DNA of 64,000 nucleotides from an uncultured Pseudomonadota bacterium (GTDB lineage Bacteria > Pseudomonadota > Alphaproteobacteria > RF32 > CAG-239), in the NCBI GenBank assembly GCA_949295915.1, contig CASFNB010000004.1, forward strand, positions 4,294 to 68,293, in the 5' to 3' direction. Below are positions 22,216 through 22,600 of this stretch, one piece after another (position 1 is the first letter of the stretch; the number at the start of each line of letters is the position of its first letter). The notes under the pieces were generated by a model, which ran no database searches, was not told where the DNA came from, and worked only from the letters and a program-made list of their open reading frames with translations. The translations under genes and the position numbers were made by a program.

Positions 22216-22291
22216 GCTCGGGTAGCTCAGTCGGTAGAGCAGAGGACTGAAAATCCTCGTGTCGGCGGTTCGATCCCGTCCCCGAGCACCA
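22216..22291 (+). tRNA. tRNA-Phe (GAA)
   Basis: 76 nt; acceptor stem GCTCGGG/CCCGAGC, D arm, anticodon loop CT-GAA-AA, T arm GGCGG-TTCGATC-CCGTC, encoded CCA. Confidence 0.98.
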
Positions 22292-22336
22292 TCTCTTAAA
22301 AGAAGTTCCGTTAAGGAACTTTTTTTTTGTTTTAAA
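22271..22336 (+). repeat. Direct repeat copy 1: tRNA-Phe 3' end (from the T-loop) plus terminator
   Basis: CGATCCCGTCCCCGAGCACCATCTCTTAAAAGAAGTTCCGTTAAGGAACT(n)GTTTTAAA; matches 22537-22600 except T-run length (9 vs 7). Confidence 0.95.
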
Positions 22337-22536
22337 CGTATCGGGATTGAACAGCCGACACGAGCGTGGAGGCGCCGGAGGAAAACAAACAATTCTGCGA
22401 ATTGTTTGTTGACGACGGGCTCGACAAGGTTAAACTTGCAGACGAGCGGCAGCGTTGGCTGGCAAGTTTTAGCTTGGCGGTGACCGAAGCGAAGTTGTTG
22501 AGCTTATATAGATAAGCGAAACTTACGCAGCAAGAC
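22337..22536. mobile_element. 200-bp palindrome-rich non-coding element at the tRNA-Phe 3' end
   Basis: Flanked by att-like direct repeats; GC-richer than its flanks; three internal hairpins; no integrase nearby. Confidence 0.6.
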
Positions 22537-22600
22537 CGATCCCGTCCCCGAGCACCATCTCTTAAAAGAAGTTCCGTTAAGGAACTTTTTTTGTTTTAAA
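22537..22600 (+). repeat. Direct repeat copy 2 (attR-like tRNA-Phe 3' fragment plus terminator)
   Basis: Duplicate of 22271-22336. Confidence 0.95.

Follow-up and report, generated by a model that had tools for sequence, protein, structure and literature searches.

Downstream of the only tRNA gene in the window (that is, the whole 64-kb stretch of DNA that was analysed, from an uncultured bird-gut alphaproteobacterium), the 3' end of tRNA-Phe and its terminator occur a second time, and 200 bp of gene-less DNA lie between the two copies. The locus raises the question of how this insert arose: whether it is the residue of an integrative element, a small element that still moves, a functional RNA, or the product of recombination in which no integrase took part. 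The sole tRNA was identified as tRNA-Phe(GAA) by ARAGORN and Rfam; the gene order at the locus is thrS, a DUF2934 gene, tRNA-Phe, a gene for a membrane-like protein of 98 aa, and CNNM/CorC. The nearest named relatives of the thrS product, threonyl-tRNA synthetase, belonged to uncultured gut Alphaproteobacteria. The features concerned were as follows:

21902-22132: flanking gene of a DUF2934 protein, 76 aa
22216-22291, plus strand: intact tRNA-Phe(GAA), the putative integration target (ARAGORN; Rfam tRNA, 69.4 bits)
22271-22336, plus strand: first copy of the direct repeat, on the attL side, comprising T-loop, tRNA 3' end, CCA, intrinsic terminator and GTTTTAAA (repeat search, blastn, terminator scan)
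22337-22536, no strand assigned: the insert, gene-less, strongly structured and missing from empty-site relatives (composition, copy number, empty sites, folding)
22537-22600, plus strand: second copy of the direct repeat, on the attR side, comprising a displaced tRNA-Phe 3' fragment (22537-22557), a terminator (22563-22593) and GTTTTAAA (repeat search, terminator scan)
22610-22639, minus strand: convergent terminator of the 98-aa gene, forming the right edge of the variable spot (terminator scan) and joined directly to GTTTTAAA in empty-site relatives
22647-22943, minus strand: the 98-aa gene, membrane-like and belonging to no family

The direct repeat was 64–66 nt in length, and its second copy was set 266 bp downstream of the first. 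Without gaps, 22271-22331 matched 22537-22597 at 97% identity; when a 2-nt difference in the length of a T-run was allowed, the match reached 22336 and 22600, the copies being otherwise the same. A duplication of the tRNA 3' end and terminator between exactly these limits had been described in the original prediction, and repeat search and blastn both recovered it. In the first copy, the terminator scan placed a hairpin and U-run, i.e., an intrinsic terminator, at 22298-22326. The duplicated stretch of the tRNA started in the T-loop at CGATCCCG, with identity beginning at the first C of TT-CGATC, and the T-loop is a canonical crossover sublocation. The displaced fragment at 22537-22557 corresponded to the final 21 nt of tRNA-Phe, in the same orientation as the intact tDNA. 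The repeat then continued for 45 nt past the tRNA, through the terminator, and ended exactly at GTTTTAAA, which is where all lineages start to differ.

The original prediction took it as established that tyrosine-integrase elements commonly recombine in the tRNA T-loop and duplicate the 3' end. The locus has the architecture of such a site-specific insertion: identity starts within the T-loop, the 3' end of the tRNA has been rebuilt, a displaced fragment points the same way as the intact tDNA, and relatives have empty sites (see below). On balance we consider it probable, without being secure, that the insert is what is left, with no gene, of an integrative element that had recombined into the T-loop of tRNA-Phe by means of a tyrosine integrase. 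A tyrosine integrase would have recombined the element into the T-loop, whereby the tRNA 3' end and terminator were rebuilt from element-borne sequence (the first copy, attL) and the original 3' end and terminator were pushed 266 bp downstream (the second copy, attR). A later deletion would have taken the integrase and the cargo, leaving 200 bp of element DNA between the att sites as a CIME-like scar. In sibling strains, a second, unrelated island with a P4-type integrase occupies this tRNA at the anticodon loop, which gives a tandem array. The 66-nt repeats now undergo gene conversion, and they could also delete the insert or pass it between lineages.

Contigs with genes for either small flanking protein, or for homologues of these, were compared and revealed five states of the site. 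The first was the structure seen in the window, which was shared by more than a dozen assemblies of the same species at 98–99% identity; in the window species both repeats were present and their tRNA parts were intact. The second was an exact empty site in three sister lineages (L033-L035, L036 and L049/L050), where the tRNA was followed by one terminator and GTTTTAAA, and then directly by the convergent terminator of the 98-aa gene. Given exact empty sites in sister lineages, the window holds a true 266-bp insertion. In the third state, other cargo followed GTTTTAAA; this was a PLD-family gene in L021 and a 1.18-kb, two-gene insertion in L037-L040. The fourth state was a 9.9-kb island in four strains of the window species (L001, L002, L004 and L006), the far ends of which were found on L011 and L013. 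The fifth was a second insert-bearing lineage, L046, the GTDB species representative, which was ~91% identical to the window and in which the insert was followed by the 127-aa gene that was also seen in L037. At a further locus, L047, unrelated sequence (a polysaccharide cluster) lay beside the gene; tRNA-Phe was absent from the locus as fetched, and L047 could not therefore be placed at the GTTTTAAA junction. The strain comparison suggested by the original prediction thus produced both empty sites and a larger, integrase-bearing island in the same tRNA. That prediction had also conceded that an insert that was single-copy and fixed in all relatives would be a simple local duplication; the insert is indeed single-copy, but it is not fixed, since empty-site relatives exist. 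Between lineages, the 98-aa gene showed 72–86% nucleotide identity, compared with 89–94% for thrS, and so diverged much faster.

The boundaries of the repeat also bear on an origin of the structure in which an integrase had no part. Recombination, homologous or illegitimate, or a template switch at the hairpin of the terminator might have duplicated the tRNA trailer and placed foreign or templated DNA in the interval. That the repeat extends 45 nt past the tRNA and stops exactly at GTTTTAAA is consistent with this, as is the insertion in L037-L040, where the 127-aa gene was bracketed by a duplicated terminator of the 98-aa gene and there was no tRNA fragment:

L037 5296-5335 and 5762-5801 (also L038-L040, and L046 5433-5907): duplicated terminator hairpin around the 127-aa gene, a duplication of ~40–60 nt

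Against it, the repeat starts on its left side within the T-loop, at a canonical integrase crossover point, and the G-C content of the insert is foreign. An origin of this kind was considered distinctly improbable. The locus thus offers, in the 127-aa gene, another example of cargo with a duplicated terminator on either side.

In most strains of the same species, the two repeat copies were unlike just past the CCA (TCTCTTAAAAGAAG versus TTTCCTAAAAAG), such that the first copy read ...CCATCTCTTAAAAGAAG... and the second ...CCATTTCCTAAAAAG... In the window, both copies were of the first type (CCATCTCTTAAAAGAAG), and this near-perfect identity was peculiar to the window strain; recent gene conversion between the copies accounts for it. 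L008 was the exception among the other strains, having TTTCCTAAAAAG in both copies. Gene conversion between the repeat copies was therefore visible across strains, and it is among the observations that favour an island remnant. In L046, the tRNA part of the second copy had decayed to CGATCCCGTGCCAAAGCACCA.

The neighbouring island, which is of 9.9 kb, was delimited in sibling strains as follows:

22246-22292, plus strand: att core (direct repeat) of the island, from the anticodon loop to the CCA, identified from sibling strains; the island itself is not in the window
L002 4391-8231 and L011 4697-8297: pieces of the island from the same scaffold (ERZ16268202 scaffold_462), with others in L001, L004, L006 and L013
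L011 4869-5777: island integrase ORF of 302 aa, ending ...YVFPA and so stopping short of the catalytic region with HxxR and Tyr

On the tRNA side, L001, L002, L004 and L006 matched the window only as far as 22295, while on the far side L011 and L013 resumed at 22246. The island sits at the anticodon loop of tRNA-Phe, upstream of the 200-bp insert and the second repeat, and the array runs from the tRNA through the island, a tRNA fragment of 47 nt and its terminator, and the 200-bp insert to a tRNA fragment of 21 nt and its terminator. With the insert and the island both located in tRNA-Phe, the gene is an integration hotspot with a tandem array. The cargo of the island differed by strain, being KwaA/KwaB (Kiwa) plus DUF2513, or a KAP-family NTPase in L004; the island also carried a PLD-transpeptidase fusion gene, AAA_25, HTH_17 and an Arm-DNA-bind_3/Phage_integrase gene (P4-type), and AGTAAGCAAATAGTAAGCA arm-type repeats were found at both of its ends.

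An island in the same tRNA, like the varied cargo after GTTTTAAA, argues for an integrative origin of the insert, and a collapsed island scar, one of two alternatives offered by the original prediction, provided the best fit. The same island also supplies a point on the other side, for it uses another crossover point and its integrase looks truncated. The L011 integrase is probably a pseudogene, judging from an ORF that ends before the HxxR and Tyr catalytic region, which is retained by a 402-aa homologue in L041; the truncation means that the island may itself be immobile. With a different crossover point and a truncated-looking integrase, the island is no obvious helper for the insert, and since it occupies another sublocation of the tRNA, mobilisation of the insert in cis is not expected. 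Nor did the insert display homology to the island ends, or to any other cargo at the spot, by blastn or tblastx.

The composition of the insert set it apart from its surroundings. At 51.5% G-C, compared with 39.7% for the window, it was the 200-bp, GC-richer sequence that had been reported between the repeats, and its folding exceeded that of shuffled sequences on both strands (z = -4.6 and -5.1). Three structural elements were delimited:

22384-22410, no strand assigned: perfect 12-bp hairpin with a 3-nt loop (repeat search); loop variant 22398 C>T
22422-22479, no strand assigned: imperfect 18-bp stem with arms at 22422-22439 and 22462-22479 and a 22-nt loop (repeat search)
22481-22536, no strand assigned: two-tier hairpin at the right end, 56 nt, including GCTTAT-ATAG-ATAAGC and abutting the crossover (fold)

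All three had been anticipated: the first with the same limits, the second as a stem of ~15 bp at 22425-22475, and the third through its GCTTAT-ATAG-ATAAGC motif, which can be read directly in the sequence. The possibility, raised at the same time, that the duplication was an assembly artefact was not upheld. Over 12 independent metagenome assemblies contained the structure, as did Logan contigs from over 15 runs. The insert-holding runs were chicken, bird and other gut metagenomes and compost; those listed as 'rna' were of unstated type, with a contig depth of only 2–5x. Artefact was ruled out on these grounds, as was chance, by the shuffling of the insert described below.

Searches for related sequences were almost uniformly negative. 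The insert was single-copy in the window (blastn), and an exact 23-mer taken from it occurred once, in one genome (L046), among 185,579 GTDB species genomes; this was a search by exact word, which diverged copies elsewhere in a genome could escape. No homologue of the insert was found among phages and plasmids (blastn, distant mode), in IMG/VR (pattern search, where the sole match was a chance one to a phage tRNA-Phe) or in JGI metagenomes (pattern search), and no parent element was present in the fetched loci. The lack of a parent element in these collections counts against an island remnant. So too does the lack of an integrase: when the 64-kb window was searched by tblastn with three P4-type proteins (two distinct genes, from L011 and L041/L042), no integrase homologue was detected, as the original prediction had maintained. 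That prediction had further envisaged copies behind other tRNAs, each with an antisense arm matched to its host tRNA; no copies behind other tRNAs were found, and none with a re-matched arm was seen.

With a single copy in the window and an exact 23-mer that occurs once only, the insert is not supported as a member of a REPIN, attC or MITE-type repeat family. A folded-ssDNA repeat element of this kind was the second alternative of the original prediction, and it failed on copy number and context. The insert is like REPIN/RAYT elements and attC sites in being short, gene-less and hairpin-rich, and this anatomy is the sole point in favour. It is unlike them in being present once in the window and once in the species representative genome, where REPINs have many copies; in having no partner enzyme nearby; and in being flanked by 66-nt direct repeats of a tRNA end, not by an inverted REP pair or R/L boxes. 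There was neither a cassette array nor an integrase or RAYT context in the window such as an integron or a REPIN would supply, and the insert ends (22337 and 22536) had no terminal inverted repeats, which, together with the 66-nt flanking repeat and the single copy, separates it from MITEs. The antisense arm, moreover, would pair over only 8 nt in an excised unit. Membership of any of these classes was thought very improbable indeed.

One reading frame within the insert (+2; a 49-aa ORF at 22366-22515) had a protein-like look. It matched nothing in Pfam or PHROG, and no word-sharing homologue was found among 5.8 billion proteins; HMMER returned only two weak matches, P0135 and P0136 (E = 3e-5 and 8e-4). 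These two proteins are tandem repeats of ~80 aa (GLADPARLQEARARWLGELAVQESKLAR...) and look like translated repetitive DNA. When lineage variants were read by hand codon by codon, there were ~3 synonymous and 10 non-synonymous substitutions, plus one stop and one frameshift. A protein-coding remnant was ruled out, there being no family, no real homologue and no gene-like pattern of substitution.

The folding of the insert favours a reading in which it is a functional structured RNA under selection. It would be either the gene of a small RNA or an element of the tRNA trailer; the second copy of the repeat would provide its terminator, and its antisense arm would pair with tRNA-Phe precursors or read-through transcripts. 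A strong folding signal was present on both strands, and a promoter-like site was identified at 22409-22436. Of the 200 positions of the insert, only 3 (22398, 22440 and 22459) differed between the window and L046, and each of them is a loop position when the two main hairpins are drawn from their repeat arms. When Logan contigs were included, 25 positions were variable; 11 of these fell within 22440-22462 and, across the lineages compared, none fell in the stems of the 12-bp hairpin, such that its stems were invariant while loops varied. The depletion of substitutions at predicted paired positions was not significant, however (p = 0.07 to 0.2). Compensatory changes of pairs were not observed, the variants being too few for covariation. 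Rfam produced no family match for the insert, the only hit at E <= 10 being a chance, miRNA-type match on the hairpin, and several close lineages do without the insert altogether. A selected RNA of this sort was judged unlikely.

The insert also contained an inverted copy of part of the tRNA, which begins five bases into the insert:

22342-22364, plus strand: inverted copy of tRNA positions 22256-22278 (repeat search, 300 shuffles, exact 23-mer search of GTDB)

It covers the variable loop, the 5' strand of the T-stem, the T-loop and 4 nt of the 3' strand of the T-stem. As originally proposed, it was complementary to the tRNA at 21 of 23 positions, and the mismatches are one G.A and one G.U wobble; among 300 shuffles of the insert, the best complementarity over a 23-mer was no more than 17/23. 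The inverted copy was absent from the first ~700 bp, i.e., the tRNA-proximal end, of the neighbouring 9.9-kb island, and to our knowledge it is not a feature of att sites. It is real, yet unexplained, and it counts against a simple island remnant. Several systems were weighed because the 23-mer is complementary to its target. A homing guide of a CRISPR-associated transposon, an IS110 bridge RNA and a retron were each rejected, given that the 66-nt repeat, and the orientation and spacing with respect to the putative protospacer, did not fit and that a partner gene was missing; a permuted tmRNA was rejected because ARAGORN found no tmRNA.

The position of the inverted copy hints at an origin through template switching. 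The point halfway between the arm and its partner in the tRNA is no more than 2 nt away from the middle of the terminator hairpin, as template switching at that hairpin, without an integrase, would predict. A simple fold-back, however, should have left an inverted copy between the terminator and the arm, and the sequence there is not such a copy, which weighs against it. As for recombination, 15 of the 23 nt complemented by the arm are on the chromosomal side of the crossover, leaving 8 nt that could pair in an excised 266-bp unit; it follows that the excised unit cannot build a folded attP with the arm.

The arm was also proposed to act in RNA, by sequestering the T-arm in a read-through transcript. 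In the minimum-free-energy fold of a hypothetical read-through RNA, the T-arm is predicted to pair with the antisense arm, which frees the 3' strand of the acceptor; this much agrees with the proposal, and with a functional RNA generally. Set against both is a U9 terminator that stands between the T-arm and the antisense arm, and in some lineages the arm is variable at its CGGG end. Capture of the T-arm by the antisense arm is plausible on energy only.

The insert was far less diverged than its flanks. Whereas its three differences from L046 amount to 98.5% identity, the 5 kb upstream were only 90.6% identical between the window and L046. Functionless, decaying DNA should diverge like the DNA around it, and so the contrast counts against an island remnant, just as the low divergence would suit an RNA under selection. 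The flanks were themselves mosaic. A comparison of window positions 19840-22215 with L036, L038 and L046 showed that the upstream flank of L046 shared 99.8% identity with the insert-less L038 (and 97.5% with L034, an empty-site lineage), while thrS of L038 was 98.9% identical to L036 and only 93% identical to L046. From these discordant identities of L038, the locus was interpreted as a recombination mosaic, with frequent homologous exchange around the tRNA. Homologous recombination, with the tRNA and the displaced fragment as anchors, could have carried the insert from one lineage to another, and the insert could have been lost through the repeats; loss or transfer by these routes would explain its patchy distribution. 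Mosaic flanks thus agree with an island remnant, as does an insert that is gene-less, GC-foreign and single-copy. The identity of 98.5% amid flanks of ~91% is unexplained, and homologous recombination, selection on a functional RNA and mobilisation in trans would each give the same picture.

Parts of the right end of the insert were encountered elsewhere. The right 56 nt (22481-22536) recurred at 85–90% identity in Logan contigs of bird-gut metagenomes (runs X15, X17, X19 and X20), with other flanks, no tRNA fragment and unrelated intrinsic terminators immediately after; the homology stopped exactly at the boundary of insert and repeat. Occurrence without a tRNA fragment counts against an island remnant, while a hairpin placed directly before intrinsic terminators is where the 3' end of an RNA would be. 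In an X19 contig, a 3' fragment of tRNA-Phe stood between a sequence similar to the final 15 nt of the insert, on its 5' side, and another terminator, on its 3' side; from its sequence, it may be a related attR in another genome. These contigs offer the most promising clue to where the insert came from.

A candidate attR in another genome is also what would be expected of an active, non-autonomous mini-element, in which the 266-bp unit (the 200 bp plus one att repeat) is moved in trans by a T-loop integrase encoded elsewhere and so spreads between lineages. The attL and attR are both intact in the window species, and the insert is patchy, being present in the window lineage and L046 and absent from L034 and from L038, despite the near-identical upstream flank of the latter; its low divergence relative to the flanks is likewise consistent with movement. 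Nonetheless, it exists as a single copy, at one site and in one species cluster among the 185,579 species genomes, and the window is without an integrase. The insert-holding runs were examined as assembled contigs, and in these no circular junction was seen; joints that appeared to go back 265 positions were the first repeat copy. The first copy differs between the two insert-bearing lineages, although the moving unit should carry it, and homologous recombination within a mosaic locus gives the same pattern. Active movement of this kind is possible but not likely. A more elaborate version, in which the 266-bp unit is a miniature integrative element that is still alive, equivalent to a MITE but dependent on a tyrosine integrase, that hops between related lineages in trans and whose conserved, structured 200-nt core, with 23 nt complementary to the chromosomal side of its own crossover point, is functional, would be quite a speculative proposition and is improbable. 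The core might then assist recombination as an accessory site, or mark or regulate tRNA-Phe, its target, as an RNA.

Among described systems, an island remnant at tRNA-Phe most resembles the CIMEs (cis-mobilizable elements), which according to PMC5704250 are decayed ICEs or IMEs that keep attL and attR, such as those related to ICESt1 in Streptococcus thermophilus (Pavlovic 2004; Bellanger 2011). The insert likewise has no genes for integration or transfer, retains two att-like direct repeats at the 3' end of its target gene, and stands in tandem with a larger integrase-bearing island in sibling strains; such accretion with a later-arriving island is a described fate of CIME remnants (PMC5704250). 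It differs in being far smaller, at 200 bp, entirely gene-less and with no parent element known, and in that the accreted island recombines at the anticodon loop and the insert at the T-loop. Both sublocations are common; Islander, which delimits islands by an intact tDNA and a displaced 3' fragment, recorded 1836 islands with sites in the T-stem region and 2083 centred on the anticodon (PMC4383910). The geometry of the insert, the use of two sublocations and the tandem arrangement at one tDNA were all as in Islander islands; intact tDNA with a fragment, a canonical crossover and an empty site were each found. The integrase gene that Islander requires was missing from the interval, and the block of identity extended 45 nt past the tRNA, through the terminator.

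The insert fits best as a CIME-like remnant, and a very small one, at a hotspot for islands in tRNA-Phe, which is an ordinary kind of feature. As such, it shows one tRNA gene serving as a multi-use landing pad in an uncultured gut bacterium, with sites at the T-loop and the anticodon loop and then a variable spot past the terminator, which takes defence islands such as Kiwa, and where displaced tRNA ends keep recombining through gene conversion. Were the 200-nt core functional or mobile, it would represent a minimal integrase-dependent element, or a small RNA linked to a tRNA and complementary to its host tRNA.

A further island was noted at tRNA-Thr(CGT) in a more distant lineage. It was present in L041/L042 (8440-9677), began with a P4-type integrase of 402–411 aa and carried a KAP NTPase; the comparison loci, L043 (8535-8610) and L044, were empty at this site. 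tRNA-targeted defence islands seem to be common in the clade.
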